Notes: generated from the sequence alone by a model not told the origin. A DNA stretch of 43,618 nt from a bacterium (GCA_050874485.1 JBNMKT010000001.1:1-43618); one strand, 5' to 3'. Counted from the stretch's first letter, positions 13,901 to 36,699 are shown. Numbers and translations: made by a program.

Positions 13901-14187
13901 ATGTCTGCATACAAAGTCGAGATCTGCGGTGTCAACACTGCCAAACTCCCCGTACTCAAAGAAGATGAAAAAGATGCGCTGTTCGCGCGCATCCGCGAAG
14001 GTGATCCGCTTGCCAGAGAAGAATACATCAAAGGGAATCTGCGCCTTGTGCTCTCTATCATCCGGCGCTTTTCCGGCCATACAGACAACATCGATGATCT
14101 GTTTCAGATCGGCTGCATCGGGCTCATGAAATCGATCGATAATTTTGATCCAACACTTGGGGTCAAATTCTCGACCTATGCGGTGCC
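13901..14187 (+). CDS. sigG: RNA polymerase sporulation sigma factor SigG, 5' fragment (codons 1-96), interrupted
   Basis: KVEICGVNTAKLPVL N-terminus diagnostic of SigG; GNLRLVLS, DDLFQIGCIGLMKSIDNFD and KFSTYAVPMI. The reading frame then runs into element DNA and stops at 14218. Confidence 0.95.
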
Positions 14188-14210
14188 GATGATTGTACTT
14201 AGTCGAAACA
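14186..14210. other. attL junction
   Basis: CC-GATGATT followed by arm GTACTTAGTCGAAACA (14195-14210), which is the inverted complement (15/16) of the arm at 32952-32967. Confidence 0.9.
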
Positions 14211-15573: not shown

Positions 15574-15665
15574 TCTATCATATCTCTCCCTCTTATAATA
15601 GGAACTTTCCATCATTGTAGCAGATTCTTCTCCAGATTTCCACCTTCAATATATGGTTATTTTCT

Positions 15666-15674
15666 TTTGTCGAA
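15666..15674 (+). promoter_or_regulatory. Spo0A-box-like site upstream of the recombinase
   Basis: TTTGTCGAA (core TGNCGAA) about 95 nt upstream of the recombinase ATG. Confidence 0.35.
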
Positions 15675-15691
15675 ATTTTCCAAAAAAATGA

Positions 15692-15717
15692 AAAGGATGC
15701 TTGCCTGTGCATCCTTT
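15692..15717 (-). terminator. Intrinsic terminator insulating the recombinase from upstream genes
   Basis: AAAGGATGC-N8-GCATCCTTT stem with a T-rich tail on the minus strand. Confidence 0.7.
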
Positions 15718-15735
15718 CCATTTATACTAACATCT

Positions 15736-15918
15736 TTATGCTGCGTTCTGTGTATCAGCTTCCTCATGTTCCGCTCTCACACTACGCACTTTCCTTGGAG
15801 CTAGGACCGTACGTTTTAAAAATTGCACCGCCCGCTCTCCAAGCTCATATTGACCACTACGAACCAGTTCTGTAACATCCTCTCCACTTGCATTGGTTAT
15901 CGTTCCTATATGTACCAT
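15736..15918 (-). CDS. 60-aa protein, paralogue 1 (candidate recombination directionality factor)
   Basis: MVHIGTITNASGEDVTELVRSGQY is near-identical to the ORF at 30184-30366. Start lies 4 nt after the resolvase stop. Confidence 0.75.
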   Translation of the reverse strand: MVHIGTITNASGEDVTELVRSGQYELGERAVQFLKRTVLAPRKVRSVRAEHEEADTQNAA

Positions 15919-15922
15919 CCGA

Positions 15923-16696: not shown

Positions 16697-16709
16697 AGCG
16701 TCTTTAACC

Positions 16710-17630: not shown

Positions 17631-17642
17631 TGCCTTATCCTC

Positions 17643-18449: not shown

Positions 18450-18460
18450 GATAATCCTCC

Positions 18461-19396: not shown

Positions 19397-19397
19397 G

Positions 19398-19535
19398 TCA
19401 GATCATCCCTCCTTTTACGCATGGAATCATATCCGATATGAAGCGTGCCAAATCCTGTCTGAATATGGATACCAAGACGATAAGCACAGTCAATATCAAT
19501 ATAATCTCCACAGTTCCCAAGCCTCTGTTTTTCAT
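19398..19535 (-). CDS. 45-aa Flp1-like type IVb prepilin (not in ORF track)
   Basis: Hand translation MKNRG|LGTVEIILILTVLIVLVSIFRQDLARFISDMIPCVKGGMI. AGGAGG RBS, Gly(-1)/Glu(+5) and a hydrophobic helix. TGA lies 1 nt before the yqaJ ATG. Confidence 0.8.
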   Translation of the reverse strand: MKNRGLGTVEIILILTVLIVLVSIFRQDLARFISDMIPCVKGGMI

Positions 19536-19592
19536 TGTCTGTTTCCTCCTGCGGTACATTTGCCCCGCTTATAATGATCTCTGTTTTCATAG

Positions 19593-20519: not shown

Positions 20520-20543
20520 AATAAGTTATCCTCCTTTTGACAG

Positions 20544-20571
20544 AAAAAGCCCCCGGCGCTGTGCCGGGGGC
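20544..20571 (-). terminator. Strong intrinsic terminator-like hairpin just upstream of the DUF932 RBS
   Basis: GCCCCCGGC-N5-GCCGGGGGC followed by TTTTT on the minus strand. Confidence 0.75.
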
Positions 20572-20642
20572 AATTGATTATTACTACTGCAATGATATGT
20601 AATTCAAAAAGAATACTTTATCAGCACAATCCTGTGATCGCA

Positions 20643-20789
20643 CTATTTCTTTCGAATATGGTTCAAAATCTTTTTTGCTGCCTGTTCCTTTGCCCTGCAG
20701 CTCGGACAGATATGCGTCACAGATGTCAGATCCTTCATATAGATCCGCCCACATCTTTGGCATCTTTCCGTTCCTGATACAAAAGTCAT
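20643..20789 (-). CDS. 48-aa zinc-ribbon protein (not in ORF track)
   Basis: Hand translation MTFVSGTERCQRCGRIYMKDLTSVTHICPSCRAKEQAAKKILNHIRKK, with CxxC-x14-CxxC. AAGGGGTG RBS. Lies directly after the box promoter. Confidence 0.7.
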   Translation of the reverse strand: MTFVSGTERCQRCGRIYMKDLTSVTHICPSCRAKEQAAKKILNHIRKK

Positions 20790-20824
20790 CCCGGTTCACC
20801 CCTTTCTTTGATTCCCTTACACGC

Positions 20825-20856
20825 AGTATAGCAAATTCCAGTGACACAGTTTGTCA
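20825..20856 (-). promoter_or_regulatory. Box promoter 1 (TGACA-N5-TGTCA, 11 nt, TATACT)
   Basis: TGACACAGTTTGTCA at 20842-20856; -10 TATACT on the minus strand at 20825-20830. Confidence 0.8.
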
Positions 20857-20906
20857 CCGACAGAGAAAAAATCTTTTTTCTATTTCACAATCTTTTTCAC
20901 TCCACA

Positions 20907-20938
20907 TGACATGGTCTGTCATCCCCCAAATGTATGAT
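20907..20938 (+). promoter_or_regulatory. Box promoter 2 (TGACA-N5-TGTCA, 11 nt, TATGAT)
   Basis: TGACATGGTCTGTCA at 20907-20921; -10 TATGAT at 20933-20938. Confidence 0.8.
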
Positions 20939-21005
20939 AAATACAGCAAGAGCCACTTCAAGTGACTACAAAAACAAGCAAAACACCAAGAAAGGACAGA
21001 AACAT

Positions 21006-21800
21006 ATGGAAGAGACAAAAAACACTGAAATTCAAGCAGAAGAAGCCTATTCGTATCATTACGAAGATTATCACACACCACTGGCATGCGCTTTTCATTC
21101 CAGACTGGAAGCATTCAAGTATACAGATTATTACAGCCTGTCGTTTGACAGCCGGATCGGTTCCGAGTTCTATAACAGCAAATCTGCATGTGAAAAAGCA
21201 CGCAAGCAGTGCATCGAAACAGCCTATTACGCTGCAAAACAGCACTTCACGCCCTCATCTTCTCTGTGTATCGCTGATGACGCAGTAAAATTTTACTCCA
21301 AGCGCGTAGAAAGTGTTTTCTTCCCGGTCATTGACCGCATGGAAATGCTCTGTAAATCCACCAATCAGCCGACTGCTTTCACCAAGTTAAAAGAGCTTGT
21401 AGATGGATGCAAAGCAGAACTGACCAAGCGCTTCGAGAATGAGTTACGTAAAAATGCAAGCTACTACGCCCTGTACGATGTCAGCTACTTCATTGAAAAA
21501 GTTCCGATTGAAAAGCACGATTTCCGCGTTTCGGAAGATGTCGTATTCAAGCTGCTGGAAACACTGATCGCTGACAATGTCCAGTACACGATCACCGACA
21601 TCTATACCTCTATCGGAGAGATGGAACACGATCTGAACAACCACGCCGGCACTTTTTTCAACACCGCGTACAGCGAATACACGAGCTATGTATCCGAGAT
21701 TGAATCACTCTTAGACGGCATCGGTAACGGCTTCCCTCCTCTGCAGGAGGGCGAAAATGCCAATGATTATGTTCATCGGATTTGTTCTTCACAATATTAG
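21006..21800 (+). CDS. Hypothetical helical protein (264 aa)
   Basis: Long clean ORF. AAGGA precedes ATG 21006. Preceded by box promoter 2 and followed by terminators. Confidence 0.7.
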   Translation: MEETKNTEIQAEEAYSYHYEDYHTPLACAFHSRLEAFKYTDYYSLSFDSRIGSEFYNSKSACEKARKQCIETAYYAAKQHFTPSSSLCIADDAVKFYSKRVESVFFPVIDRMEMLCKSTNQPTAFTKLKELVDGCKAELTKRFENELRKNASYYALYDVSYFIEKVPIEKHDFRVSEDVVFKLLETLIADNVQYTITDIYTSIGEMEHDLNNHAGTFFNTAYSEYTSYVSEIESLLDGIGNGFPPLQEGENANDYVHRICSSQY

Positions 21801-21824
21801 TTTTATATCTTTCCGCAAAAAAGA

Positions 21825-21905
21825 ACCGTTCATGCCGCATTAGAGCATGAACGGTGACTTTTTATTGTATACCTATACAATAAAACCACCAGCTAAGCTG
21901 GTGGT
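21825..21905. terminator. Three consecutive hairpins between convergent genes
   Basis: ACCGTTCATGC/GCATGAACGGT (21825-21855), TTTTATTGTATA-CC-TATACAATAAAA (21860-21885) and ACCACCAGCT-A-AGCTGGTGGT (21885-21905). Confidence 0.8.
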
Positions 21906-21912
21906 GCTAATT

Positions 21913-22824
21913 TTAGTATAAGGATGTAAGAAAATCCTGCAAATTTTTATCCGTAGATGTCACAGATCCAGTTTCATGATCCCAGAACACAACATTCTTA
22001 TTTGCTAAAGAATAACAAATATAATTGCCAAACACAACCGTTTTAGAAGACTCCGACAACATTCTGTATGTAGCTGCTTTATGCTCCGGGTCGCGTGAAT
22101 TATTTGGTCCTGGAGTATCCACAAGCACTAACGAAACATCATCTGCCGTAACAAAAGGAATATTTCCTTCTACATGAACTCGAGACACCTCTGGATTACT
22201 ATTCAAACTATTCATTATATCAAAGGTCAGTTCCGGATGTGTCTGTATCAGATTTCCATCTGAATCGTACACCTTTGCTGTGAAATAGTCAGCATCATTA
22301 TCTTTGATTTCTGTAATGGTTGCAGTACATGCTTCTTGTTTTGCAGGCATTAACCGCTGTCTGAGAAGTGCATTGATTAATGTCGATTTTCCAGCACTCA
22401 TGGTAGCTACTACATTTACCTCGAAATCACTACTCTTTGCCAAATTAAATGCCTTAATAACATCCGGCTGTTTCAATTCTTCGAATGGTCCCGCCTGAAT
22501 TTCATCAAAGATCTCACTAATAGCAGCTTCCTTATCTGCAACTTCCTTTGCCGGAATATGTTCAAGCTCGATGTTTATATTTTTCTTTTTTGCATCCCGC
22601 GCCATTGCCTCGACATCTTCGTAATCTAGCGTGGTTCCCTGAAAGATAATTTTAAAATCGCGAACACTACATTCCTCAAATAGAATATCGGGCAAGTCTT
22701 CGATCCATTCCTGCAATCTTCGATCATAAAAATTCAACTGGCTGTTCTGCTTTGGAGCTACGCCATCAACTAAAACTTCTGTTTCCAAACGATACGGATT
22801 GTACTTAATTGAAATCTCTGTCAT
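21913..22824 (-). pseudogene. Truncated dynamin-like GTPase fused to a SMI1/KNR4-like C-terminal fragment
   Basis: ATMSAGKST (G1), ACTA (G2) and DTPG (G3) present; G4 NKxD and helical stalk absent. Tail FGNYICY...VVFWDHE...LQDFLTSLY. Confidence 0.7.
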
Positions 22825-22830
22825 TATTCA

Positions 22831-24153
22831 TCACCTCATATTGTAAATTATATTTTCCAGTTGCAATAAACCCGAATGTTTCAGCACCTGGTAACTTTTT
22901 TCTTCGTTATCAACTTGAACTGCTTTTTGAATATCTTCTGGATAATAACTATCAAACTGATATTCATTTTTCCTCATTTTCCTTGCCATTCTATCTAGTT
23001 CATCCAACTCATCTTCATTTAACTTTTCTCCAAAAATAGACATTTTGGCAAGATACGCCGCATATGCAGAAACAGGAGCTATATTCAATTCATCAAATCC
23101 TATTTCATGCAAATCAGCTACAATCTGTTTTAAACTGTCAGGAACAGAGTCATCTTTTCCGAACGTATCTAATTTATTTACTACAAAAATAATTTTACCA
23201 TGAAAGTTTTTCTGTACAAATAAAAGATGCTGCCTATCGTCTTCTGTTCCAAGACTTTCACCATTCATCAGATATATCAGTGCGTCCGCATCTGATGTAC
23301 TCAATGCATTCTCTGTGAGTTTTCTGTGATCCTTATTCTGTGCTGAATTAACCCCCGGTGTATCTATAAGCCACATTCTCTTCGGGGTTGTGCCAATTGT
23401 CCTAAATGAAACACCCACTTCTATCTCTGAACTATTATTGTCAACATTGTCATCCATTAAGGTATCATAATCAGCGTCCAATTCTAGAAGGTAATCATAC
23501 TCATAATATAAATTGTCTTCAAATGCCTTATTTTCAATATAATGCAACTTTGAAGTACAAGCAGCATGCTGTGTTTTGCTCACTTTTTTCCCAACTAACG
23601 CGTTTAACAGAGTCGACTTTCCGGCACTCATATTAGCAGTCACAATCACTTTTATAGGTTTTTCCTGCAAGAAATCTCGATTCTTATCCCAGCACTCTCT
23701 CATATAATCAATTTTATCAATGTTCTCTACCGATACTGAAGCATCGTATAAATACTCAAAAACCTGACGGATTTTCTTCTGATACCGCTTATGATAGATG
23801 ACTGAAAGTTCTTCATATATTTTTTCTCCTTTGTCCTGATCCATATAAGCATTCATAAAGATGCAATCAAAAACCAAACAGTATCTATATGAAAAAAATT
23901 TAAATGGTTTAAACTTTGTTGCAACCACACGTTTGGATTTCTTTTGTATATTATATGCTGTTGGAAGATCGACAGGTTCGCTTCCAACTAACTTTTGGTA
24001 ATACAAAAGCAATGTTTGCTTCGCCCACAAATCATCTTTTGAATACTTCTGAACAAAGTAGTTCAAAACATTTACATACCTCAGCCTATATTTTTCTTCC
24101 AATATAGGATGTTTTTCTAACATCTGCGATACTTCCAAATGCAAGTCATTCAT
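22831..24153 (-). CDS. Dynamin-like GTPase (440 aa)
   Basis: ANMSAGKST, ACTS, DTPG, NKLD and PVSA motifs. Confidence 0.85.
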   Translation of the reverse strand: MNDLHLEVSQMLEKHPILEEKYRLRYVNVLNYFVQKYSKDDLWAKQTLLLYYQKLVGSEPVDLPTAYNIQKKSKRVVATKFKPFKFFSYRYCLVFDCIFMNAYMDQDKGEKIYEELSVIYHKRYQKKIRQVFEYLYDASVSVENIDKIDYMRECWDKNRDFLQEKPIKVIVTANMSAGKSTLLNALVGKKVSKTQHAACTSKLHYIENKAFEDNLYYEYDYLLELDADYDTLMDDNVDNNSSEIEVGVSFRTIGTTPKRMWLIDTPGVNSAQNKDHRKLTENALSTSDADALIYLMNGESLGTEDDRQHLLFVQKNFHGKIIFVVNKLDTFGKDDSVPDSLKQIVADLHEIGFDELNIAPVSAYAAYLAKMSIFGEKLNEDELDELDRMARKMRKNEYQFDSYYPEDIQKAVQVDNEEKSYQVLKHSGLLQLENIIYNMR

Positions 24154-24250
24154 AAAATCCTTCCTCCATACAAGTCATTCTCATATTTTTTCATATGCCG
24201 GAGCCCTCATCATACATATATGTCATTTATACATCAGGCTTTGACTTCTT

Positions 24251-25210
24251 TTAGTTTATAAACTCAACATTATTTCCCTGACTTCTAAACCACATATCTA
24301 TTCCGTCTCCAAACACCTCCGCTCTTATAATATAAGCACCATTATCTTCTTCAACAATCTCTGCTGTAGGCAGTTTATCCAAAACAGCTTCCACCGATAA
24401 GCCGGTATAGCGAAATTTCACTTTCCGTAGCTTACCACCATACATAAACTGTATCCGTTTTCTAAATTCTCCCTCTTCAAAACGATTCGCATAAGGCACT
24501 CGATAGTGTTCATCGGTCACCTTTACATCTATTATCCGATCAATCCGATAAATTGTAGGAAAGGAATCGTTTAAAACATCAAAGTCTGCCCTTGTTGCTT
24601 CATCGTCAATAAATGCCGTCATGTAGAAATAAAACTCAGAAAACATGATTGCAGCAGGCATAACTTTACGATTCACAACCTTTTTGTCCTTCAAGCGCAT
24701 ATATGAAATCTCAATGTACTGATGTTGCTGAATTGCTTGACCGATCAACCACATCTTGTTAATAAACACCGATTTGTGTCTTGGCTCTACATAATGGTAC
24801 TCTTCATTGCAGATCAAGTCTTTCACTAATTTTTGATTTTCTTTCGGCACACAACAATCAAGTAACTTGTCCAACATAGCGACCATTTCTTTTTTGGTAA
24901 ACGCTCTGCTATCCAAAAGGATTTTACAAATAGCAAGAATTTCTGCATTACTAAATTTCAATTGATACAGCTGTCCTAACCGGAAACCTTTTTTTGCACG
25001 ATCATAGACCACAGAATTTACAATGCCACTGTCCACCACCGCTTTATCTAAAAACTTACGAATATCATCAATATCTCTCTGAATCGTCCGTTCATTCACG
25101 CCATAGTTATTGGCTTCCTCTGCTTTTTGGATAACAGCTCCATTCAAAAGTTTCGTGTATAGATCAAGCACTCGTTCTGTTTTATCTGATGTACCCTGCT
25201 CAACTGCCAT
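24251..25210 (-). CDS. WYL-domain transcriptional regulator (wHTH-WYL-WCX)
   Basis: N-terminal HTH GVNERTIQRDIDDIR, FSEFYFYM (WYL-equivalent), YRIDRI and C-terminal W..SQG. Confidence 0.92.
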   Translation of the reverse strand: MAVEQGTSDKTERVLDLYTKLLNGAVIQKAEEANNYGVNERTIQRDIDDIRKFLDKAVVDSGIVNSVVYDRAKKGFRLGQLYQLKFSNAEILAICKILLDSRAFTKKEMVAMLDKLLDCCVPKENQKLVKDLICNEEYHYVEPRHKSVFINKMWLIGQAIQQHQYIEISYMRLKDKKVVNRKVMPAAIMFSEFYFYMTAFIDDEATRADFDVLNDSFPTIYRIDRIIDVKVTDEHYRVPYANRFEEGEFRKRIQFMYGGKLRKVKFRYTGLSVEAVLDKLPTAEIVEEDNGAYIIRAEVFGDGIDMWFRSQGNNVEFIN

Positions 25211-25241
25211 TTAATCACTCCTGTCTTTAAAAATTTATCCT

Positions 25242-25273
25242 ATTTTACCAAACAGCAATGACACATCCTGTCA
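25242..25273 (-). promoter_or_regulatory. Box promoter 3, upstream of the WYL gene
   Basis: TGACACATCCTGTCA at 25259-25273; 11 nt; TGG-TAAAAT extended -10 at 25242-25247. Confidence 0.8.
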
Positions 25274-25621
25274 CACATCAAAATTTTCTTCATTTACTTT
25301 ACTTAGATAAAGCAATTATACTCTTTAAACAATTCTATATCAATATTTTTGTGCATAATATTCATTTTTCTTCATTATTTCCTATCTTTTTAACAATTTC
25401 CTTTTCGTCCAGTGCTTTAGAACAATTATAAGTATCCACGCATACACATAGACAGCTCGAATCTTTCTCTTGTCCCCATTTCTCATATTTTCTATTTTAC
25501 AACAAATTTTCGTTGCCGCAACTATTAGCATAAGCAAATACTGCTTTCCGCTTATTATTCTCTTTTGATAACTCTTGTATTATTTTCATATACTATGAGT
25601 TGTATTTGGAGGTTACCGACT

Positions 25622-25954
25622 ATGGACTATGTCTTTCTTGGGAAACGTATCCGCGAGGAGCGCTTACGGTTAAATCTAACGCAGGAAAAGCTGGCAGAAG
25701 CCTGTGGCATTTCCACCGCATATCTGGGACAGATTGAACGCGGCGAGCGTTGCATCACCCTTGATAAGCTGATCCCACTGGCAAACTGTTTGGGAACTAC
25801 GATTGATTTTCTTCTCTCAGATTACATCAACCCCCAGAACGACACTAACTTTAATATTCTCTTTCAGCTATTTCAAGGTAAGAGCGATCAGGAAAAGGAG
25901 CTTGCCATTCAACTGCTCAAACTTCTCTTTTCATATACAGATGGACGTCTCTAA
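25622..25954 (+). CDS. XRE-family HTH transcriptional regulator
   Basis: LGKRIREER...LTQEKLAE.CGIS..YLGQIERGER. GGAGG precedes ATG 25622. Confidence 0.9.
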   Translation: MDYVFLGKRIREERLRLNLTQEKLAEACGISTAYLGQIERGERCITLDKLIPLANCLGTTIDFLLSDYINPQNDTNFNILFQLFQGKSDQEKELAIQLLKLLFSYTDGRL

Positions 25955-25962
25955 GCGCCAAT

Positions 25963-25992
25963 TGTCCGGTATGCGTAACTGCATACCGGACA
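25963..25992. terminator. Intrinsic terminator between convergent genes
   Basis: TGTCCGGTATGC-N6-GCATACCGGACA followed by TTGTTTTT. Confidence 0.8.
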
Positions 25993-26003
25993 TTGTTTTT
26001 ATT

Positions 26004-26911
26004 CTATAACATTCCAAATCCCAGTGTTCCACACTCATTGACCAGATCAAAGACCACAACCGTCTTGTTATCCCAGCTGATCAGCTTCTGCTCGCCTTTT
26101 CCATATCCATCGCCATCATTCAATAGATAATTGTCAACCTTAACAACATTCCAGTCAGAATCGTATGTCAGCACAGAATATGCACCGTAGATCTTCTCAT
26201 CACTATTATTGTTCAGCAATGCCACCGTACGGTTATCTTCATAACTCATGCTCACATCAGCCTTGGCTTTCCCATTCTTTTTTCCGATCAACTTAATCGA
26301 AGTCATTTCAGGAGAGGAAAATTCAACATGCTCCACAGCCTAAAGTACACACGCTGCTCTCCTTTGCCGTTTACACTGACATAACAGTTGCCAACACCGT
26401 CATAGACCTTCTTCCAGTTCTTGTCATAGCCTACCAGATCCACAGAAACCACTAACGGACGATCTGTTTTGTTCTTGACAACAACACTGGCACAGCTATC
26501 ACTTTCTCTCTGGAAGTCTTTGAGACTCATAATTGATTTGTCACTCTTGTAACTCTTTACGACTACATTACGCGTCACCTTACCTTTGCCGGATTTAATC
26601 GTGATCTTTGCCTTTCCTGCCTTTTCAGCAGTAAGAACACTGCCTGCAACTGATACTACCTTAGAATTGCTTGTGGTACACTTTATCGGTCCGGCGGCTC
26701 CTGCAGTAACACGAACTCCCACACGTTCGCCCTCTCCATTCACCAACCACATCTCCTGATTGTTGCTCAGATTGACTTTCAGCGCACTTGCTGCCTCTGC
26801 CTCCACGCAAGCAAAACTCATATTCTGCCCACCGATCAGCCCCGTCATGGTCAATGACAGTGCCAGTACAAGTCCTAATCCTTTTCTTTTCATCCATTGC
26901 GTTCTCTTCAT
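26004..26911 (-). pseudogene. Secreted Ig-like (Big_2-type) protein, split by a frameshift near 26340
   Basis: Signal peptide MKRTQWMKRKGLGLVLALSL..., TSNSKVVSV..G.LTA.K.GKA.IT motif. The two overlapping ORFs share a repeated YD..W..V...GKGEQ domain. Confidence 0.6.
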
Positions 26912-26939
26912 AGCGCACGCCTCCTTTTTTTATAAAAAG

Positions 26940-26971
26940 AGCTTACCATAGCACTATGACATACCGTGTCA
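26940..26971 (-). promoter_or_regulatory. Box promoter 4, upstream of the secreted protein gene
   Basis: TGACATACCGTGTCA at 26957-26971; 11 nt; TGG-TAAGCT at 26940-26945. Confidence 0.75.
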
Positions 26972-27195
26972 CTTACAAAAAAATTTTCTACGATCCAGCA
27001 GGTGCCGTGCCAGCCGGGACTAGCCCGGGTTCGACCACTATTATAATATCTAATCTCACTAGGAGCAGTTACCATATCTGCCCATAGATCCAGTGACTGG
27101 CAGCTTCCTACAGATTAAGCCAACAAAAAAGCCCCTGTTTGATTCTTCATCATAACAAGAGCTTTCGCTATACGATCCATCTGTAGCAAATCAAC

Positions 27196-27420
27196 TTATG
27201 CAGCATATTCTACAATTGCAACTTCTGTCAGGGCTTCTTTTAACTTTTTTACAATCTCCTCAATTCGTGCGACAACCTCTCCACTATAAGAGACTTCTCC
27301 GCACTGGCTACATTTATGGCATGGCACATGCTTAATAATAATAAAATGTCCATCCAAGTCCACCATGTAATTGCAGAAATCATCTTTCATTTCACCTTTA
27401 CAATAAAAACATTTATCCAT
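27196..27420 (-). CDS. YgiT/MqsA-type zinc-finger protein (putative antitoxin)
   Basis: C..CKG...IIIK.VPC.KC.QCGE pattern, directly downstream of a DUF4258-like gene. Confidence 0.85.
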   Translation of the reverse strand: MDKCFYCKGEMKDDFCNYMVDLDGHFIIIKHVPCHKCSQCGEVSYSGEVVARIEEIVKKLKEALTEVAIVEYAA

Positions 27421-27424
27421 GCAA

Positions 27425-27733
27425 TCATTCCTTCCTCTTTTTTAATTCTTCATCCCATTGAGATGGATCCGGTTCATACGCTGTAATTAGCCATAGCTTA
27501 TGTTCTCCAATACCTACAACTACATGCAGTTTTCGTTCGTGAATCGTCATCCCCAAGATCAAACAGCTTGGATATGGATAATCATCGGGATATTCCTCAA
27601 TAATTTCCCCGTTTTTTATTACTTCCTTAATTTCCTCATACGAAATATTCCGCTGCTGACATCTCATCAGAATATGCTGTGTTACCTCGATCGTTGCATC
27701 TCTGCACAATAATTTAATCTGATCTATGTCCAT
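27425..27733 (-). CDS. DUF4258-family protein (putative RelE-like toxin)
   Basis: T.H...R...R.I, GEIIEEYPDDYPYPSCLILG, LHVV and ITAYEP...W. Confidence 0.85.
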   Translation of the reverse strand: MDIDQIKLLCRDATIEVTQHILMRCQQRNISYEEIKEVIKNGEIIEEYPDDYPYPSCLILGMTIHERKLHVVVGIGEHKLWLITAYEPDPSQWDEELKKRKE

Positions 27734-27922
27734 GTAGTACCATCTCCCCTCGCAGCTTATATTTTCTCCATTAATATTATACCCTCTCCGTCCAAATTTG
27801 TACACACCTTTTGCTCCTGATCCGAATATCGCAATACATATGTTTCATTGCCCCTTATTTAACGTGGTCGACATTTCTAAACATTCATTTAAATAAACCA
27901 AAATCCAAGGGGGGGATTTATA

Positions 27923-28108
27923 ATGTACGATAATGAAATCAGCGATCTGATCAGTATAGAGGATCTATGCGACATGCTAGCCATCGGAAAAAACACTGCG
28001 TATCATCTGTTGAACACTAATGAAATCCAAGCCTTTCGTATCGGGCGTAGTTGGAAGATTCCTCGCCAGAGCGTCATCAACTATATCAAAAACAAAAGTG
28101 GACTCTGA
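27923..28108 (+). CDS. Excisionase-like HTH_17 DNA-binding protein
   Basis: L.IGKNTAY.L.....I.AFRIGRSWKIP. GGGGG RBS. Confidence 0.85.
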   Translation: MYDNEISDLISIEDLCDMLAIGKNTAYHLLNTNEIQAFRIGRSWKIPRQSVINYIKNKSGL

Positions 28109-28139
28109 TCCTTTTCTATGGGTAGGCAGTGTTAGCTGC

Positions 28140-28763
28140 CTACTCTCCCTTCTTTCCCTGTTCAAGTAATGCCTGGTATTGAGGATCTGTTTTTCTGAAA
28201 CAGTTCGCATTCTTAAATGTCACAGGAGACCTTTGTGCATAATTTCCCAAAATCTGATCAAACTGGTTATTCCTTGCCACTCGTTCTTCGTTTGTTTGAT
28301 GAAATTTCTTACCATCAACATAACTAACGCTGTTTCCAGCAAAATGTACATGCATAAATGAACTATCCGTTTTTTCCTTAGGTCTTGTCAAATGTGTTGC
28401 CGCAATAACTTGATATCCCATATCATAAAATTCTCGTCCCATTTCTTCAAATGCCATTACTACTAAACTTGGATTGCAGCCAACCTGACAAAATGCTTCT
28501 TCTTTAATCGAATACTGCATATGGAAAGCTCTCCTTCCACCTCTGGAATCTATATTATATACTCTCTGAATTTGATTCACCAGTTCAATCTGTTTAGCAA
28601 GGCTGTCATCATTATCTATACCATAACTTCTATAACTTACTAAATCAGTAGCATCTCTCTTATCTCTACAACAATACTTTGCGACTTTTTCAAAAGCATC
28701 TTTATTTCCATAGGCGCCTTTCTTATGATTCGAAATATTTATAAGCATTCCTTCAATTGACAT
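28140..28763 (-). CDS. Short relaxase/mobilization nuclease (HUH)
   Basis: N-terminal Tyr helix, AFH...S, YQVIAATH......HVHFAGNSVS..DGKK. Confidence 0.8.
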   Translation of the reverse strand: MSIEGMLINISNHKKGAYGNKDAFEKVAKYCCRDKRDATDLVSYRSYGIDNDDSLAKQIELVNQIQRVYNIDSRGGRRAFHMQYSIKEEAFCQVGCNPSLVVMAFEEMGREFYDMGYQVIAATHLTRPKEKTDSSFMHVHFAGNSVSYVDGKKFHQTNEERVARNNQFDQILGNYAQRSPVTFKNANCFRKTDPQYQALLEQGKKGE

Positions 28764-28993
28764 ACAATCCCTCCAATCTGTTGTTTTAATTCCGGTAAAT
28801 CATTGCACATCTGCGTAAGCTGCACGCAAAGCCGCGCTGTCATCTGTTGCTTACGCTTGTTTGTTATCCTTTTAGGAATACAGCAAGTCTCTATGTAATC
28901 TCCAACAGACATGCCATTCTCTTTTGCATGATCACTAATCGCTTGCTTTGTGATCTGTGAACATCGAAACTCTACCTTACTGTCTTTTGACAT
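28739..28993 (-). CDS. MobC-like ribbon-helix-helix accessory protein
   Basis: KVEFRCS...K..I...A...GMSV.DYI pattern. Overlaps the relaxase start. AGGAGG RBS. Confidence 0.65.
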   Translation of the reverse strand: MSKDSKVEFRCSQITKQAISDHAKENGMSVGDYIETCCIPKRITNKRKQQMTARLCVQLTQMCNDLPELKQQIGGIVCQLKECL

Positions 28994-29356
28994 CCATTTG
29001 ACCCTCCTTGTCATTTTGGGGATTCTATGAGAAGTTTGAATATATGTATAAATATAATTTCTTTATCATAATATACTTTCTATTTGTCATATTTCTTTAT
29101 TTCTGTATATTCTCTATTTTCAAGAATACCTTTTTCAGAATTACATATCTTTGATTTATATATATAACAAGTATACCTTTTGTCGGACATTTCTTCTTTC
29201 CCGATCAAAGCATCCCTCATTACAGAAGCCCTCCTTTGCATTTTTACTTATAGTATTGTTTATTCTATCCCTTCACGCTTTGTATTTGCCCACTTCTTAT
29301 CGTATAATACCGAAAAAGAAAGGTGTGCATCTCTGCCCACCTTCTCGCGGCCTGTT

Positions 29357-29761
29357 TTACACAGACATCACACATTTTTCGTTATAATACGGTATCAGTG
29401 AATCATGTGTCACAAATACCATTCCTTCTACCTTTGCCTGGGCTATAAGCAGCCGATCAAAAGGATCATTATGTCGCGGAGCATCTTCCGGTCTCACCAA
29501 AGTTTTGATCTTGTAGATATGCTCTGCAGCAATAGGCAACTGATGCAAGCCTGCTTCCACACATAATTCCACAAACGCTTCCTCTGATACAGGCATTTCC
29601 TCCGGTCGGATCTTATGCTTAATTGCGATCTCCCAAACCGAAGCCATGCTATAATACACCGTATTCCCGGATGATTTCAATGCTGCCACAACCTTATCCG
29701 GTAATTTTTCCGGAGCTGTGAATGCCCACAAGGCAATATGCGTATCTAATAACAGCTTCAT
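29357..29761 (-). CDS. PIN-domain (VapC-type) toxin
   Basis: LLDTH..LW, S.ASVWEIAIK, H.DPFDRLLIAQA and T.D. Confidence 0.92.
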   Translation of the reverse strand: MKLLLDTHIALWAFTAPEKLPDKVVAALKSSGNTVYYSMASVWEIAIKHKIRPEEMPVSEEAFVELCVEAGLHQLPIAAEHIYKIKTLVRPEDAPRHNDPFDRLLIAQAKVEGMVFVTHDSLIPYYNEKCVMSV

Positions 29762-30033
29762 CCTTCACTTGCCCCAAACATTTCTGCAATTTCATCATTA
29801 GCGCCATCAATATCGTCCGGTAACTGATACTTCCCTTTTGCAAGCCCCAGCTTAACGCCCGTATCCGGTACGGTCAGATGTATGGTAAACGGCATAGCTT
29901 TGTCCTGTACGCTCTGCTTTGCGAAGATACGCACCGCCTCTGCAAAAGATGTCCCCATGTTCTTATAAAGGCTCTCCACCTGTTCTTTGAGATCAGCGTC
30001 CATTCTCACTTGTAACGTAGCTTCTTTTGCCAT
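29758..30033 (-). CDS. RelB/DinJ-type antitoxin
   Basis: LQVRMD..LK......Y..MG....EAVRIF..Q.V....MPF. ATGA overlap with the toxin start. Confidence 0.85.
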   Translation of the reverse strand: MAKEATLQVRMDADLKEQVESLYKNMGTSFAEAVRIFAKQSVQDKAMPFTIHLTVPDTGVKLGLAKGKYQLPDDIDGANDEIAEMFGASEG

Positions 30034-30051
30034 GAGATCCCCTCCTTTTTT

Positions 30052-30069
30052 GTAATACAATTGTACTAC
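30052..30069. promoter_or_regulatory. Putative TA operator palindrome
   Basis: GTAATACAATTGTACTAC (perfect core TACAATTGTA) just upstream of the antitoxin RBS, overlapping a TACAAT -10. Confidence 0.6.
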
Positions 30070-30144
30070 GTTATTTTATCTTACGCAACCCTTTCTTATG
30101 CAGTCCCCCTCTCTCCCGGCAAGCGACATTTTTTGACAAAGACA

Positions 30145-30172
30145 CGGCACCTTGGATTTCTCCAAGATGCCG
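30145..30172 (-). terminator. Hairpin downstream of paralogue 2
   Basis: CGGCACCTTGGA-TTTC-TCCAAGATGCCG (one mismatch). Confidence 0.6.
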
Positions 30173-30183
30173 CCATGCTTGTC

Positions 30184-30366
30184 TTATGCACTTACCTTTG
30201 TATCCGTCCCTAAATGATCGCCGTTGGCAGCCTGCTCCTTACGACTTGCCTGTAGCACACGGTTCAAATAGTCGTTTGCCCTGTCACTCAAAGCATACTG
30301 CCCGCTCTTGACTAATTCCGTGACATCTTCTCCTGCTGCATTCGTAATCATACCAAGATGTACCAT
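30184..30366 (-). CDS. 60-aa protein, paralogue 2 (candidate recombination directionality factor)
   Basis: MVHLGMITNAAGEDVTELVKSGQY. GGAG RBS. Preceded by a perfect dyad AATCATGTA-GTTA-TACATGATT (30379-30400). Confidence 0.75.
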   Translation of the reverse strand: MVHLGMITNAAGEDVTELVKSGQYALSDRANDYLNRVLQASRKEQAANGDHLGTDTKVSA

Positions 30367-30419
30367 CAATATCACTCCAATCATGTAGTTATACATGATT
30401 GTTGCCGGAATGATATTTT

Positions 30420-32219
30420 TTAATCATCATCTCGATATATGTATACTGTTCCCCCGTATTTCTTTTTCATTTTATACGGAATACCCAAATGTTTCATAAG
30501 CCCATTAAACATTTCCGCTCCATATATCTGACCTTCCTTGGCCTTGGCTTTTTTATACAAACGAGATCTTGCAGATTCTATAGTAATATCTTTCCCTCTC
30601 GCTTTTCCTAGAAAAAGATCTCCATCATCATTTTCAATCAAATCAAATAATGCAGTCCTTATCAAATTAAAACCTTCAATAGCTTCTTCTTTTGATACCC
30701 CTTCTTTCGGGAACTGACATAAATATGATTCTATAATATTTCTGCATTCCTTATAATGATCCTCCAAATATTCATTTACAATTTTGTTCGTTTCATCTTC
30801 TCGGTTCAACCACGACAACTGAATACGAACAAAAGCCCATTTATCTTTTTCCAACTCAGCATCTAATTTTTCATAAAGTGCTTTCAAATAATCAAGTTGA
30901 GCAATACTCAGGTCACTTTTCACAACATTTAAAGCATCATCAATATAGCAAACACTTTTTACAGTTTTATACACCTGATTCGATTTAAGCATCATTTCTA
31001 TTAATTTGCATTGCATTTGCTGAGGAACTTTTTTATTAAACGTAGCAACAACACCAAAGTCGTTATCAAAAAATTGGAGTGCCTTATTCACCTTTTTCAA
31101 TTTTTTTGAAAAAGAATTATGTTCTCCAATCGGTATATACAAATGTACATTCTCATAACTCTCTGTCCTAATTCTGCCTAAACACTGTAAAAATTCTATT
31201 TTATTATCAGCAAATATAACAATATTGTTTCTATCCTCTACCACCGACACGCCACAATCTAATACGTATGTCAAAATACATACCTTATATGAACCTTTTC
31301 GTTGTTCCACAAAACGATCAACTTCTTTATGTGCTTCCGGATCATGTCTGTACTGCGCATCAATAAAAATACTTTTTATCTGTTTCTTTTTCAAAGCCCT
31401 ATCAAGTGCACTTCCCTTTTTCTTGTCATCAACAAAAACCATCCATTTTTTTGACTTTTGCATTAAAATCATATCTTGTAAGTCTTGATAAGTTTTAAAC
31501 AGATGGATATTTAAACCCATATATTTATTCTTTATATCCAACGTATACGTATGTGGCTTAACAAATGTATTTCGTTCCATGCACATACGTTTCAAATTAT
31601 TAGCACAATACTGCTCTATATTCTCCATCGTGGCAGACATGAATATCATTGTATATCCGCAATGAATCGGGAATGCCTTCAACTTATTGTGAAACAACAA
31701 ATTTACAAATGACAATTCTGTAGATGGGTTAAAAAGCGAGTCAGACATAAAGTAATGAGCCTCATCCATCACAATATAGGAGCAAGAATTATATATATTT
31801 AACAGTCTCTGATAAGTAGCAGGACTTGAAACAACCGATTGGCATATCTGTTCAAAGCGTTGATATGTCACTACTATAAGATTGTCTTTTATATTTTGGT
31901 CTAAAGCCCCCCCTCTTCGCAACTTTGATTCCACTCCACATATATCCGCATCTAGTTGCATCTTCAATATTTTTCTATTAACGAGATACAATATCTTCTG
32001 ACCACGTGAAATAGCCCAAGGCAACAATTGATTAAGGACAAATGTTGTTTTCCCAGACCCAGTCGGAGCTGAAATAAAAATAGCATCATTTTCTTTCCAT
32101 TTTTTATAATCATCCCCTATTTGTTCAGTAACTGTCATGATTTTATTATCAGCTTTCTTCTGATCAATTTCGTATTCTTGAATACAGCCAATGGCTTTTT
32201 CATTTTGTACATACATCAC
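30420..32219 (-). CDS. Superfamily 2 DEAD/DEAH-box helicase-like protein
   Basis: APTGSGKT (motif I), DEAH (II), MSAT (III), T.VLD.GV (V) and Q.LGRIR (VI). Confidence 0.88.
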   Translation of the reverse strand: MMYVQNEKAIGCIQEYEIDQKKADNKIMTVTEQIGDDYKKWKENDAIFISAPTGSGKTTFVLNQLLPWAISRGQKILYLVNRKILKMQLDADICGVESKLRRGGALDQNIKDNLIVVTYQRFEQICQSVVSSPATYQRLLNIYNSCSYIVMDEAHYFMSDSLFNPSTELSFVNLLFHNKLKAFPIHCGYTMIFMSATMENIEQYCANNLKRMCMERNTFVKPHTYTLDIKNKYMGLNIHLFKTYQDLQDMILMQKSKKWMVFVDDKKKGSALDRALKKKQIKSIFIDAQYRHDPEAHKEVDRFVEQRKGSYKVCILTYVLDCGVSVVEDRNNIVIFADNKIEFLQCLGRIRTESYENVHLYIPIGEHNSFSKKLKKVNKALQFFDNDFGVVATFNKKVPQQMQCKLIEMMLKSNQVYKTVKSVCYIDDALNVVKSDLSIAQLDYLKALYEKLDAELEKDKWAFVRIQLSWLNREDETNKIVNEYLEDHYKECRNIIESYLCQFPKEGVSKEEAIEGFNLIRTALFDLIENDDGDLFLGKARGKDITIESARSRLYKKAKAKEGQIYGAEMFNGLMKHLGIPYKMKKKYGGTVYIYRDDD

Positions 32220-32303
32220 TCACGCATCTCCAATATAAGAAAAATAATAATTATATATATTTTCCTATTTTCTATTTTATCAGAAGCTTTTTATAATGCC
32301 AAC

Positions 32304-32930
32304 CTATTTTTTTATTATACGTTCAAATATCTCTGCAAATCCTTTATTCAAGCCATTTAAGTGGCTTTCGTCAATCTTCTTACAAGTATCTATCGATACC
32401 TTCAATTTATGCTTCATATCTAATCCAGCAAGTTTTTGCATTTCAATATAGGAAAAAACTTTAAGTATATTTCCTAAAGTTTTCGTACTCGGACTGCCCT
32501 CTCTCCGCATCTTATTATACTCTTCCTCAGTCACATAGGCTCCGCCCTTCATCGCCAGATACTGCTCTTTGAAGTCTGCCAGCCATTCAAAGGGACTCTT
32601 ACCGTTATATCTGCCCCGGTAGATGTATTCTCGATCAGGATAGTGTTCATCCATCCACTGATTAACCGAAGTGACCTTGAATCGGTTTTTAATCGTTGAC
32701 AGTGAGGGCAACTCCCTGTACTTATTAAAGTCATTCAGATTCGGCAGCCGACCATTGTGATCAATCCGGAACTGCTCAATCGCATCGAAGATGGCAGCCT
32801 CTGTCCATAAAACACCGGGCGTTTCCTGTTTCATATCCTCCAGCAGCTGCATCAGCTCCTCTTGGTATTCAAATTCCGGCAGTTGTGCTATAATCTCCTT
32901 AGCAATTATCAATGCTTGTCTTCTAGTCAT
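32304..32930 (-). CDS. Putative DNA-binding protein with two homing-endonuclease-associated-repeat-like units
   Basis: WTEAAIFDAIEQF...GRLP...DF.....LPS..TIKNRF and a second ...EEEYNK.R..GSPS..T unit. GGAGGT RBS before ATG 32930. Confidence 0.55.
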   Translation of the reverse strand: MTRRQALIIAKEIIAQLPEFEYQEELMQLLEDMKQETPGVLWTEAAIFDAIEQFRIDHNGRLPNLNDFNKYRELPSLSTIKNRFKVTSVNQWMDEHYPDREYIYRGRYNGKSPFEWLADFKEQYLAMKGGAYVTEEEYNKMRREGSPSTKTLGNILKVFSYIEMQKLAGLDMKHKLKVSIDTCKKIDESHLNGLNKGFAEIFERIIKK

Positions 32931-32951
32931 GTCAAAACCTCCATATTTGGC

Positions 32952-32983
32952 TGTTTCGACCAAGTACGTTCATTCCAATGATT
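32952..32983. other. attR junction
   Basis: Arm TGTTTCGACCAAGTAC (32952-32967), 7 nt, CC (32975-32976), then AATGATT continuing into sigG. Confidence 0.9.
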
Positions 32984-33466
32984 ATCGGTGAAGTGCGCCG
33001 CTATCTGCGCGACAACAGCAGTATCCGCGTCTCCAGATCACTGCGGGATACCGCCTACAAAGCGATCCACGCCAAGGAGCAGCTCATGAACCGCACGCAG
33101 GAGGAGCCGACCATTGAGGAAATTGCTGCTGAATCCGGCCTGACCAAGGAGGAGATCGTCTATGCCCTCGATGCGATCCAGAGCCCGGTCAGCCTCTATG
33201 GTCCGGTCTACACAGACGGCGGCGATACGCTCTATGTCATGGATCAGATCGCAGACAAGAAAAACAAAGAATCCCGCTGGATCGAGTCGCTCTCTCTATC
33301 TGATGCGATGGAGCGGCTCGGTGAGCGGGAGAATTATATCATAAAATTACGTTTCTTTGAGGGCAAGACACAGATGGAAGTGGCCCAGGAGATCCACATC
33401 TCACAGGCGCAGGTATCCAGACTCGAAAAATCCGCCCTGAATCATATGAAAAATTATCTGAAATAG
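32977..33466 (+). CDS. sigG: RNA polymerase sporulation sigma factor SigG, 3' fragment (codons 97-258)
   Basis: MIIGEVRRYLRDN..IRVSRSLRD, ALDAIQ.PVSL, DGGD..YVMDQI and GKTQMEVA.EI.ISQAQVSRLEK. Continues exactly from ...STYAVP. Confidence 0.95.
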
Positions 33467-33484
33467 TGTTCTGTGGCAACCCGT

Positions 33485-35092
33485 TTAACGATCCCATTTG
33501 TCACAAAGTGAATTGATCTGGTCTGCAAAACGTGCCAATTCCTTGTTGGGCAGACCCTCACTCTTATTGATGACAGCCAGCAGCCTCTGTCCGGCAGCCA
33601 GCAGTCTCGCAAATACATTGCTGGACGCTTTGCTGGAGTTTTTCGTTTTCTTCGGCAGCATCGTCCGGCTGCCCTGCTTGATGCAGGCGTTTGTAAACAA
33701 ATCGTAAATATCGCCACTATAAGGTGCGACCGCTTCGTAACCAAGCTCATTGTGCAGATGCATCGCAAATTCGTCCGTCACTTTATCCTCACCATGAACG
33801 ACAAACACCCGCTTCGGCGGATGCTTCCGGAACGCCGCAGCCCACTCCGTCAGCTTTGTGCGGTCTGCATGGCCACTGATACCAGGCAGATTGACAATCT
33901 CTGCACGCACTTCAATCTGTTCGCCAAACAGCTTGACTTCCTTCGCACCGTTTAACAGTGCATGACCAAGCGTGCCCGGCACCTGATAACCTACAAACAG
34001 AATCGTCGAATCATCACGCCACAGATTGTGCTTCAAATGATGGCGGATACGTCCTGCCTCACACATACCGGATGCAGATATGATGACAACCGGTTTTTTG
34101 AGGAAGTTGATCTGCTTGCTGGCATTGCTGTCTACTGCTGTTTTCAATCCCGGAAACTGAATCGGGTTAATACCATTTTCCACCAGCTCGAGTGCTTCCT
34201 CGCTAAAGCATTCCCGCACATTTTTATGAAATACATTCGTTGCCTCGATCGCTAACGGACTATCAATATATACTTCAAAATCTTCAAATTCCGGCAGCAG
34301 ATGCTCCGTCTTGATCCGCCGCAGGAAATACAGCATCTCCTGTGTACGTCCGACAGAGAATGCCGGGATGACCAGATTACCGCCCCGGATAAATGTCCGT
34401 TTGATAACCTCTGCCAGTTCCGTCGCATAATCTACCGGAAGATTGTGCTCCCGGTCTCCATAAGTAGACTCCATGATGACATAATCTGCTTCTTCCAGAA
34501 ATGTCGGAGACTTGATGAGCGGCTTGTTGCCCTGTCCGATATCCCCGGAAAATACGAGTTTGACCTCTTTTTCTTTTTCCGTTACCCACAATTCAATCGA
34601 AGAAGAACCGAGCAGATGTCCGGCATCCACAAAACGGATCTTCAGCGCATCATCGACCTGTACCGTCTCACCGTAGATGCACGGTGTGAACAGGTTTAAT
34701 ACACCCTGCACATCCTCCATCGTATATAACGGCTCAATCTGCGCACCACCGGACCGTTTTGCCTTACGGTTGCGCCATTCTGCCTCAAACTCCTGAATGT
34801 GTGCAGAGTCCTTGAGCATGATCACACACAGCTCATAGGTCGCCTGTGTACAGTAGATCCGTCCCCGGAATCCATGTGCATATAATAACGGCAGCAGACC
34901 GGAATGATCGATATGCGCATGTGTCACGAGCACGGTATCGATCGCCGCCGCGTTGACCGGGATCTCCTGATTCACATACAGATCCGGTCCCTGCTCCATA
35001 CCACAATCTACGAGCAGATGCTTATCCTCATACTGTAAAAAATGACAACTGCCTGTCACCTCATGTGCTGCACCCAAAAATTCAAGTAACAT
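33485..35092 (-). CDS. MBL-fold beta-CASP metallo-hydrolase (RNase, YSH1-like)
   Basis: GAAHEVTGSC, THAHIDHSG, AGHLLGS, FSGD, ESTYG, SASGMC..GRI.HH, SGHAD and VHGE. Confidence 0.92.
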   Translation of the reverse strand: MLLEFLGAAHEVTGSCHFLQYEDKHLLVDCGMEQGPDLYVNQEIPVNAAAIDTVLVTHAHIDHSGLLPLLYAHGFRGRIYCTQATYELCVIMLKDSAHIQEFEAEWRNRKAKRSGGAQIEPLYTMEDVQGVLNLFTPCIYGETVQVDDALKIRFVDAGHLLGSSSIELWVTEKEKEVKLVFSGDIGQGNKPLIKSPTFLEEADYVIMESTYGDREHNLPVDYATELAEVIKRTFIRGGNLVIPAFSVGRTQEMLYFLRRIKTEHLLPEFEDFEVYIDSPLAIEATNVFHKNVRECFSEEALELVENGINPIQFPGLKTAVDSNASKQINFLKKPVVIISASGMCEAGRIRHHLKHNLWRDDSTILFVGYQVPGTLGHALLNGAKEVKLFGEQIEVRAEIVNLPGISGHADRTKLTEWAAAFRKHPPKRVFVVHGEDKVTDEFAMHLHNELGYEAVAPYSGDIYDLFTNACIKQGSRTMLPKKTKNSSKASSNVFARLLAAGQRLLAVINKSEGLPNKELARFADQINSLCDKWDR

Positions 35093-35179
35093 AACCCCAT
35101 CTCCTTTACGCTTTTTTGCCAAGTTCTTTTGTTAACCCCCAAAAACTCTCTTTTTTATTATTTTATCACTTTTTTCTGA

Positions 35180-35917
35180 TTATTCAAAGCGAATTATCTC
35201 TTTTTTCAGTCGTTTCATGATCTTTTTTTCCAATCGTGAAATATAGGACTGGGAGATTCCCAGTGTATCAGCGACTTCCTTTTGTGTCAGTTCTTTTCCG
35301 TCCGGCTGATGCAGTCCAAACCGCAGCTCCACGATCTGGCGTTCTCTGTCGGACAGATGCTCGATCGCATTTCCGAGCAGCTTTTTTTCGACCTCGCTCT
35401 CGATATCCTTTGAGATCACATCCTCATCCGTTCCCAATATATCTGATAATAACAGTTCATTGCCATCCCAGTCTACGTTTAACGGTTCATCGATGGATAC
35501 CTCCATGCGTGTTTTACTGTTGCGCCGCAGATACATGAGTATCTCGTTTTCAATACAACGGGAGGCATAGGTCGCAAGCTTGATCTTTTTAGCCGGATCA
35601 AACGTGTTGATTGCCTTGATCAGTCCGATCGTCCCGATGGAGATCAGATCCTCCACACCGACGCCGGTATTGTCGAATTTTTTAGCAATATAGACAACCA
35701 GCCGCAGATTATGCTCTATGAGCTCTTTGCGCGCCTCCGCACAGTTATCCCCCATGAGCAGGATGCACTCCCGCTCACGCTCTGCTGCAAGTGGCGGTGG
35801 CAGCACCTCTGCACCACCGATATAGTGTATCTCCCGCTCCTTGCGAAACAGCATTGTATATAATGTCGGTATCATCTTTAGTTGAAAACGATTCGGTACG
35901 TTGATTTTTATGTACAT
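35180..35917 (-). CDS. sigE: Sporulation sigma factor pro-SigE
   Basis: [57 protein letters not shown] and [18 protein letters not shown]. Follows spoIIGA. Confidence 0.96.
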
Positions 35918-36699
35918 CCATGATCTCCCTTCCAATGATAATCAAACGCTGCCGGCAGGATCATCCGGTAATCTTTCCCTGCAAAGACCGCATCATCTGC
36001 CCTGCCGACCACGGCTCCCGTCTGCCTGCCACCCTGCCATTCCAGTGCGTCAATCGTTGTGACCTCCATCAACTGGCCAGCTGCCCCAACTGTAGAAAAA
36101 GGAATCAACCGCGTAGCCGCAGTCCCACCGGTCAACTGTGTATACTCCGTTTCTGCCACTATACAGACTGGCATATGCACATACGGATCGTTCAACCGGT
36201 TTCCCGTATCATAGAGCCCCACGACTTCCACCGCAGCCTCTCCCTGATGCAGAGTGACCTGACAGAGTCTCTCATCATGCAGCATACGCCGTTCCTCTAA
36301 CAGCAAGGAAACCAGCATACTACAGGCACATATCACACATCCAAGGGCAAACCAGCAGCCACTCGGCAGATATGCCTGCGCAATCCCTAAAATCCCTCCA
36401 GCTGCAACTGTTGCCACCATTCCCCATGAAAAAAGACGTAAAAATACACCTGCTGTCTGCGGACGAAACAAAAGCCAGATCACAGCTGCACGCAACAGCA
36501 CGCCTCCTGCCATGACAGCTGCTCCGTATCCTGCCAGCACAAATATGAGAATCTGCAGCGCTGCCGCCACCGCATTGACCCACAAAATATGTATCACCGG
36601 GCATTCCCGTTTCATCCACAGATTTATAAACAGACACACCTGCAGCTCTACAAAAAAAGTACGCAGCCACAGCACATCTATGTATATCGTCAGCTCCAC
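35908..36699 (-). CDS. spoIIGA: Sigma-E processing peptidase SpoIIGA
   Basis: IYIDV N-terminus, multiple TM helices, DTGN.L.DP aspartic-protease motif and R.IPF.TVG. Confidence 0.9.

Follow-up and report, generated by a model that had tools for sequence, protein, structure and literature searches.

In a 43,618-nt stretch of bacterial DNA (GCA_050874485.1 JBNMKT010000001.1:1-43618; hereafter the window), an element of 18,789 bp (14188-32976) interrupts sigG and carries a large serine integrase gene (int) at one end and a 208-aa gene, orf208, at the other. We propose, with a probability of roughly 0.6, that excision rebuilds a unit of int promoter, int, attP and orf208, in which orf208 is switched on by gain of a promoter and by release of an RNA hairpin from its ribosome-binding site (RBS). 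On the circle, orf208 would gain the integrase promoter, and an ancestral two-gene unit would be recreated. In the integrated state, RNA reaching orf208, presumably from the sigG promoter (PsigG) in elements where orf208 is sense to sigG and from antisense read-through here, would hold one att arm, which would pair with the RBS and start region. In RNA from the circle, both arms would be transcribed and pair with each other, freeing the RBS. The helicase gene behind orf208 and a small gene after it (paralogue 2) may be read through and likely have a promoter of their own.

The element resembles the sporulation gene-intervening type: it splits sigG, and precise excision would restore the frame. 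Joining the halves in silico at CC (14186-87 / 32975-76), positions 1 and 2 of a Pro codon, gives a 258-aa SigG frame with no internal stop, and a search of this genome found no other sigG, intact or not. The element arms form a 16-bp inverted repeat with one mismatch, symmetric about CC, and CC was found at both ends in 52/52 two-ended elements. Base 32977 varies synonymously in one sequencing run, as expected of host-side DNA. The integrase stop (14215) lies 4 nt from the attL arm with no terminator between int and attL (the segment folds at z +0.56), the orf208 RBS GGAGG (32942-32938) ends 9 nt from the attR arm, and on the circle the stop is 73 nt from the orf208 ATG (32930). An earlier note on this DNA had described an RBS about 10 nt from the arm, an integrase on the orf208 strand with a terminator-free stop 4 nt from attL, a 73-nt spacing on the circle and restoration of sigG by excision; all of this geometry was confirmed, the spacing with the CC crossover. 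Such closeness of the int stop to the att arm is usual in the family, 40 of 49 elements having the stop 15-30 nt from the core, and therefore is not evidence on its own.

The earlier note had claimed that no promoter for orf208 fits on the element side; on the host side of attR, no sigA-like site lies within 200 nt upstream. Scans near orf208 for sporulation-sigma consensus sequences gave nothing convincing, and a hybrid promoter across attP was rejected, with only 9/12 matches here and no conservation. Far-side promoters were seen in 0/11 elements with orf208 and 5/38 others. By contrast, int has a predicted sigA-type promoter while integrated. A sigA-like site with a score of at least 11 lies within 150 nt of the int start in 8/11 orf208 elements vs 0/37 others, and with a score of at least 10 in 10/11 vs 8/37; this contrast partly restates the spacing and coupling of int to its putative recombination directionality factor (RDF), because in most elements without orf208 a small gene of 40-60 aa abuts int, and kin are not independent, which weakens it as support for our proposal. 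The TGTCGAA box upstream of the int promoter, which we take to resemble a Spo0A box and which is also att-arm-like, is a candidate Spo0A site or integrase half-site.

To place this arrangement among relatives, we compared 49 sigG elements for which both ends and the integrase were available (the element of this window is labelled G000); L069, G061 and G415 were left out because int was absent from the 6 kb next to the junction, and G405 because it lacks attL. In 11 of the 49, the gene nearest the far end is an orf208 homologue (10 intact, one remnant). In 11/11 it lies on the integrase strand and is not tied to the sigG strand (7 antisense, 4 sense to sigG), and the distance from core to ATG is 25-44 nt in 10. 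In the 38 elements lacking orf208, the first RBS-bearing open reading frame on the same strand starts at 65-518 nt (22 elements) or none was called (16 elements). Across the order, 10 of 401 genomes carry orf208, 8 beside a split sigG or sigF half, 1 at attP and 1 broken; among 19 metagenome loci, it follows the sigG 5' half in 12 and int plus attP in one, sits at an antisense attR in another, and is otherwise arranged in 5. On an integrase tree, a quick version of maximum likelihood, orf208 presence changes 7 times, at least 5 of them forced; this scattered distribution fits an old gene lost repeatedly.

The order int-attP-orf208 is also intact in three viral contigs (L123/L202, L189 and L243). 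The free form L123, the same 115-kb contig as L202, carries a small gene, int, an intact attP, orf208 and a terminator, and in L189 and L243 the order adjoins phage lysis genes. In G447, which also has an intact sigG, one end of a 9.6-kb contig lies in the last int codons and the other starts inside the attP core, 51 nt before orf208; as this contig has no terminal overlap, it is only presumably circular. G405 combines an intact sigG with an attR copy identical over 114 nt, pointing to excision or mixed strains. Directly visible in sequence are the splitting of sigG, its att sites and the spacing of 73 nt, together with a gene order that recurs in other sigG elements and in free phage-like forms. 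What follows orf208 varies: ParA/ParB, two tRNAs and int, convergent lysis genes, or cargo. The conserved unit is int-attP-orf208 and not a four-gene replication operon.

Several loci depart from this pattern or extend it. A minimal 2.5-kb sigG element behind PsigG (L030:2470-3570, in G480) consists of an orf208 homologue, tRNA-Thr, tRNA-Trp, a small gene and integrase. In L117, L118 and L120-L122, orf208 homologues converge on the sigG 3' end and are not adjacent to an att core; L120 combines this with an intact sigG and has a divergent integrase at a distance of 770 nt. A sigF-like gene is the integration site of three integrase relatives (G265, G036 and G027). Related integrases split such a gene in L015, L016, L017, L114, L115 and L274, with an 83-kb element in G265; at the sigF-like loci the orf208 homologue lies ~200 nt inside the element and is followed by ParA. 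In G509 C2, L092 and L094, the sigG halves are opposed or flank host-like blocks, which may reflect inversions or capture of chromosomal DNA. Among 151 genomes in the search of relatives, at least 8 have sigG interrupted at this codon, and full-length sigG exceeded the cut-off in 0/48 genomes picked by integrase match. An alignment-based scan of genome contigs placed the closest integrases in Lachnospiraceae and others in Oscillospiraceae and further Clostridia, whereas a single-sequence scan of the contigs gave no match; 22 genomes of the same genus, in which the element contigs break near att, gave no integrase match. Overall, the split falls at one and the same sigG codon in dozens of Clostridia from gut and environment.

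The second part of the proposed switch is the predicted RNA hairpin formed by the attR arm around the orf208 RBS. In RNA from the circle, the upstream arm is predicted to pair with the attR-side arm and to replace the arm/RBS fold. The predicted cost of opening the segment from RBS to ATG is 10.1 kcal/mol integrated vs 5.2 on the circle in G000, and 10.3 vs 3.6 kcal/mol in G415; on the circle it fell by at least 2 kcal/mol in 7-9 of 10 elements, depending on which of three window sizes was used. When arms and RBS regions were swapped among 19 non-redundant starts (3 near-duplicates and 2 starts less than 36 nt from the core were left out), cognate duplexes had a mean of -8.3 vs -6.1 for swapped ones (0/20000 permutations, p<1/20000), whereas four coding-window controls gave p 0.12-0.88. 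Arm and post-RBS letters covary in several elements, and 28/182 arm/RBS pairs are G-U. A hairpin over the RBS is predicted still to limit translation of antisense-derived orf208 RNA. Such an att-arm switch would explain silence of orf208 behind PsigG in the sense elements, and silence here despite the terminator-free host gene that converges on sigG.

A number of observations weigh against this proposal. The absence of orf208 from 38/49 elements implies that it is not required for sigG rescue. Terminator-like GC hairpins followed by a T run lie between int and attP in 11/14 viral loci (those with orf208 after int, of 80), hairpins also occur between the int stop and the core in G491 and G506, and in L069 7 kb separate int from the core, with an outward promoter instead. 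(This promoter, within L069:18140-18230, is a perfect sigA consensus pointing out at attL, and on the circle would replace the int promoter in driving orf208.) Integrase bound at attP could block elongation. In the integrated state, antisense read-through from the host beta-CASP gene into attR and orf208, a case that the earlier note had named as refuting its reading, is plausible. For the hairpin, z was below -1 in only 10/21 starts (median -0.84), the difference between integrated and circular forms is reversed in G514 and L189, and shuffled flanks matched the observed gap in 1/60 trials here and in 1-20/60 in six others (3-20/60 in five). Contigs of four DNA runs held no attB or attP joint, and as contigs drop rare forms this is uninformative. 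Finally, a small gene precedes int in 47/49 elements, and this element lacks that gene and has a 60-aa gene (paralogue 1) instead; a hint from hand alignment that paralogues 1 and 2 belong to the small-gene family was rejected (profile E 0.2-0.9, hhalign probability 0.3).

Antisense read-through leads to a rival explanation, in which orf208 is expressed while integrated, from PsigG or by spoIIG/beta-CASP antisense read-through, and acts as a sporulation-timed activator of excision. In this genus, sigG is not behind sigE and instead converges on a sigE-beta-CASP unit (window 13901-14187, 32977-35935), a convergent layout also found in the intact-sigG relatives G402 and G410. The end of the beta-CASP gene and the sigG stop are 18 nt apart, without a terminator, and a terminator-free convergent host gene is likewise found in G405 and G415; moreover, sense elements place orf208 directly after the sigG 5' half, and 4/15 longer family members read are in-frame SigG-N fusions. 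However, a convergent gene is missing in G491, G494 and G497, a terminator-like hairpin is present in G487, the orientation of orf208 tracks int and not the host, and its RBS is predicted to be occluded when integrated, so that we consider this reading improbable. We give slightly more weight, while still doubting it, to the view that the gene order is left over from an ancestral phage and has no current role here, with the hairpin a DNA-level extra half-site or chance. Loss of orf208 from most elements, its broken copies (G512, G458 and L120) and a hairpin that is weak in about half of the starts fit this view, whereas orf208 is intact here and conserved at 68-77% in close kin (helicase, 38-48%), the int promoter is kept exactly where orf208 is, and the G-U share of the arm/RBS pairs speaks against it as well.

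The least probable of the alternatives, in our judgement, is that int, orf208, helicase and paralogue 2 form a four-gene operon that starts autonomous replication, with orf208 as the origin-binder of the helicase. The earlier note had proposed that these four genes are co-transcribed only after excision. The predicted circle transcript is indeed free of terminators from int through to 30173, making a long transcript from int to paralogue 2 possible; orf208 and helicase are paired in G405, close homologues of both occur on contigs of identical length, and orf208 precedes ParA/ParB in some ICE-like (integrative and conjugative element-like) elements. Nevertheless, the helicase has a promoter-like site of its own (32302-32274, overlooked earlier), which makes 'only after excision' unlikely for helicase and paralogue 2. 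An orf208-helicase order was seen only in G000, G405 and, probably, three short contigs, judged by their identical lengths, and elsewhere among the elements examined no helicase comes after orf208; L030, the minimal element, retains orf208 beside just two tRNAs, the small gene and int, and phages with replication genes of their own keep orf208 too. With the gene after orf208 so variable and the helicase confined to close kin, an excision-only replication operon is unsupported. We favour the rebuilding of int promoter-int-attP-orf208 on the circle.

What would orf208 do there? Its model is all-helical (AlphaFold predicted local distance difference test (pLDDT) 88), with an N-terminal helix pair that is invariant in the family. 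Relatives have two modules related to PF18780, which scored above cut-off in 4/24 scanned relatives; orf208 itself has no Pfam match, and in its rank 3 Atlas cluster PF18780 occurs in 10% of members with a score below 0.9. Searches gave no significant fold match in PDB, VIA or BFVD and no match in GenBank phages. We regard orf208 as likely a DNA-binding protein, most likely a regulator of the free state. In P0098, P0101, P0125 and P0056, the SigG N-terminal half (region 2) is fused in frame to orf208 across attL. A role of orf208 as RDF was set aside, as 47/49 elements have a separate small gene before int, including 10/11 of those with orf208. Sigma-G acts, like the product of sigF, in the forespore, whose chromosome is inherited, and hence an excised element must re-integrate or persist. 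Tentatively, we rank help with re-integration or persistence of the circle above DevI-like manipulation of sporulation or activation of excision. A broader picture, somewhat more doubtful still, would be a clostridial family of phage, ICE-like and minimal elements in sigG and sigF that use an att RNA switch and a circle-only protein to drive re-integration through the spore germ line.

The small gene before int fits an RDF by position and size. In L033-L112 the genes upstream of int form a 40-60 aa family with an N-terminal strand carrying ING/VNG and then a helix, often overlapping the int start; a profile of this family, built without the paralogues from 52 genes that were chosen by hand among 70 candidates at 80 loci, had no match among PDB sequences. 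Modelled with integrase residues 250-452, paralogue 1 scored 0.74 vs 0.00 for the best control, with contact agreement of at least 78% and partner pLDDT of at least 65, a mark reached by 116/157 solved and 2/215 mismatched pairs; this pass may owe something to solved integrase-RDF complexes. The modelled paralogue 1 adds a strand at the end of the integrase zinc domain and touches the coiled-coil base; contacts of this kind are reported for most RDFs (PMC12286644). On this model, paralogue 1 is the likely directionality factor, although it does not match the profile of the small-gene family. The survey yields ~50 integrase/small-gene pairs targeting the conserved sigG site.

Elsewhere in the window, a DUF932-YqaJ-RecT-DUF5688-resolvase module (15923-20519) lies directly upstream of paralogue 1, probably in one transcript. 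At 21913-25210 (36% GC), a WYL regulator and two dynamin-like GTPases likely form a defence cassette, the second GTPase ending in a SUKH-like tail and possibly truncated. The region 27196-30060, with two toxin-antitoxin-like pairs (DUF4258/YokU-like and RelB/PIN), a short relaxase, NikA and an HTH_17 gene, is the core of a mobilisable element. A CobW-like GTPase with a long His-rich repeat (10200-11402) is ordinary.

Table 1. Features of the split sigG gene, the inserted element and the adjoining host gene (window coordinates).
Feature	Position	Strand	Remarks
sigG 5' half	13901..14187	+	codons 1-96, ends at CC of Pro codon; NCBIfam SigG models, residues 1-96
attL	14186..14210		CC crossover 14186-14187 and element arm 14195-14210; inverted repeat with attR arm
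Large serine integrase (int), 452 aa	14215..15573	-	Resolvase, Recombinase and Zn_ribbon_recom; PHROG 95
Predicted sigA-type int promoter	15614..15642	-	TG-extended -10; equivalents in 10/11 orf208 elements (score at least 10)
TGTCGAA box upstream of int promoter	15668..15674	+	TGNCGAA within 450 nt in 7/11 orf208 elements vs 4/38 others
Terminator-like hairpin between paralogue 1 and int promoter	15688..15721	-	z -4.6, then U run
Paralogue 1, 60 aa, predicted RDF	15736..15918	-	sits where the family has its small pre-int gene
Terminator after paralogue 2	30144..30173	-	z -7.1
Paralogue 2, 60 aa	30184..30366	-	53% identical to paralogue 1
SF2 DEAH helicase	30420..32216	-	33% GC; clade-specific neighbour of orf208
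Predicted own promoter of helicase	32274..32302	-	10/12, TG-extended -10; extended -10 at same place in G405
orf208, att-adjacent helical protein	32304..32930	-	HNH_repeat-like modules; family of 450 representatives
Predicted RNA hairpin, attR arm around orf208 RBS	32931..32960	-	z -2.6, 5/200 shuffles
attR	32952..32976		element arm 32952-32967 and CC core 32975-32976
sigG 3' half	32977..33466	+	SigG models, residues 97-257
Host beta-CASP/MBL gene	33485..35092	-	converges on sigG 3' end; promoter-like site 35187-35160

We compared this arrangement with known systems, as far as they are covered by the consulted parts of the cited sources. In Tn916, promoterless end genes come to lie behind the xis-int transcript only on the circle (Celli and Trieu-Cuot 1998, via PMC5812530). 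The present element works like this read-through without being a Tn916 member: its far-end gene orf208 is promoterless and, only on the circle, is placed downstream of int with no terminator between them. Unlike Tn916, which has a tyrosine integrase and a conjugation operon, it has a serine integrase and one regulator-like gene 73 nt on, a sporulation sigma gene as target and a predicted translational hairpin in the att arm; the element contains no type IV secretion system genes, only a short relaxase and NikA mid-element. Joining of the ends also alters transcription across attP in ICEclc (Pcirc) and ICEKp1 (PMC5812530, PMC13023037), and in ICEKp1 RNA stem-loops near the junction tune output by attenuating transcription (PMC13023037). 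Whereas these systems regulate the integrase, here it would be the gene after int, with att arms predicted to swap partners over the RBS. DevI of ICEBs1, which is produced from the element on activation and could interfere with host sporulation, offers one possible role for orf208; the likeness drawn here is one of role, and DevI has 86 aa and is under Pxis, not att-adjacent, whereas orf208 is att-adjacent (PMC8032392).

The literature searches turned up no sigG-splitting element and no att-arm RBS switch, although the target lists of Mageeney 2020 and Abe 2013 may contain sigG. If true, translational switching by an att site would be a new regulatory principle and a ready-made part for recombination-coupled expression. 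The closest likeness in lifestyle is to skin (sigK), SPbeta (spsM) and gin (gerE), which have a serine recombinase at the edge and a small RDF and excise precisely, restoring a sporulation gene (PMC5025042, PMC5499854, PMC5595907, bioRxiv 2022.02.25.481979); the consulted literature on them mentions no att-adjacent partner gene. The integrases of skinCd and SPbeta are sigA-driven or constitutive (PMC5025042, PMC5499854), and the int promoter here matches this pattern. The element shares most features of this group, including a large serine recombinase at its edge and att inverted repeats, but hits a forespore gene: skin, SPbeta and gin target mother-cell genes and excise in a terminal cell, whereas sigG encodes the forespore sigma factor (PMC5499854). 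Thus, whereas the gene-intervening elements described in these sources excise in a doomed mother cell, sigG elements would do so in an inherited genome, and int-attP-orf208 is a concrete candidate for a programme of re-entry after excision.

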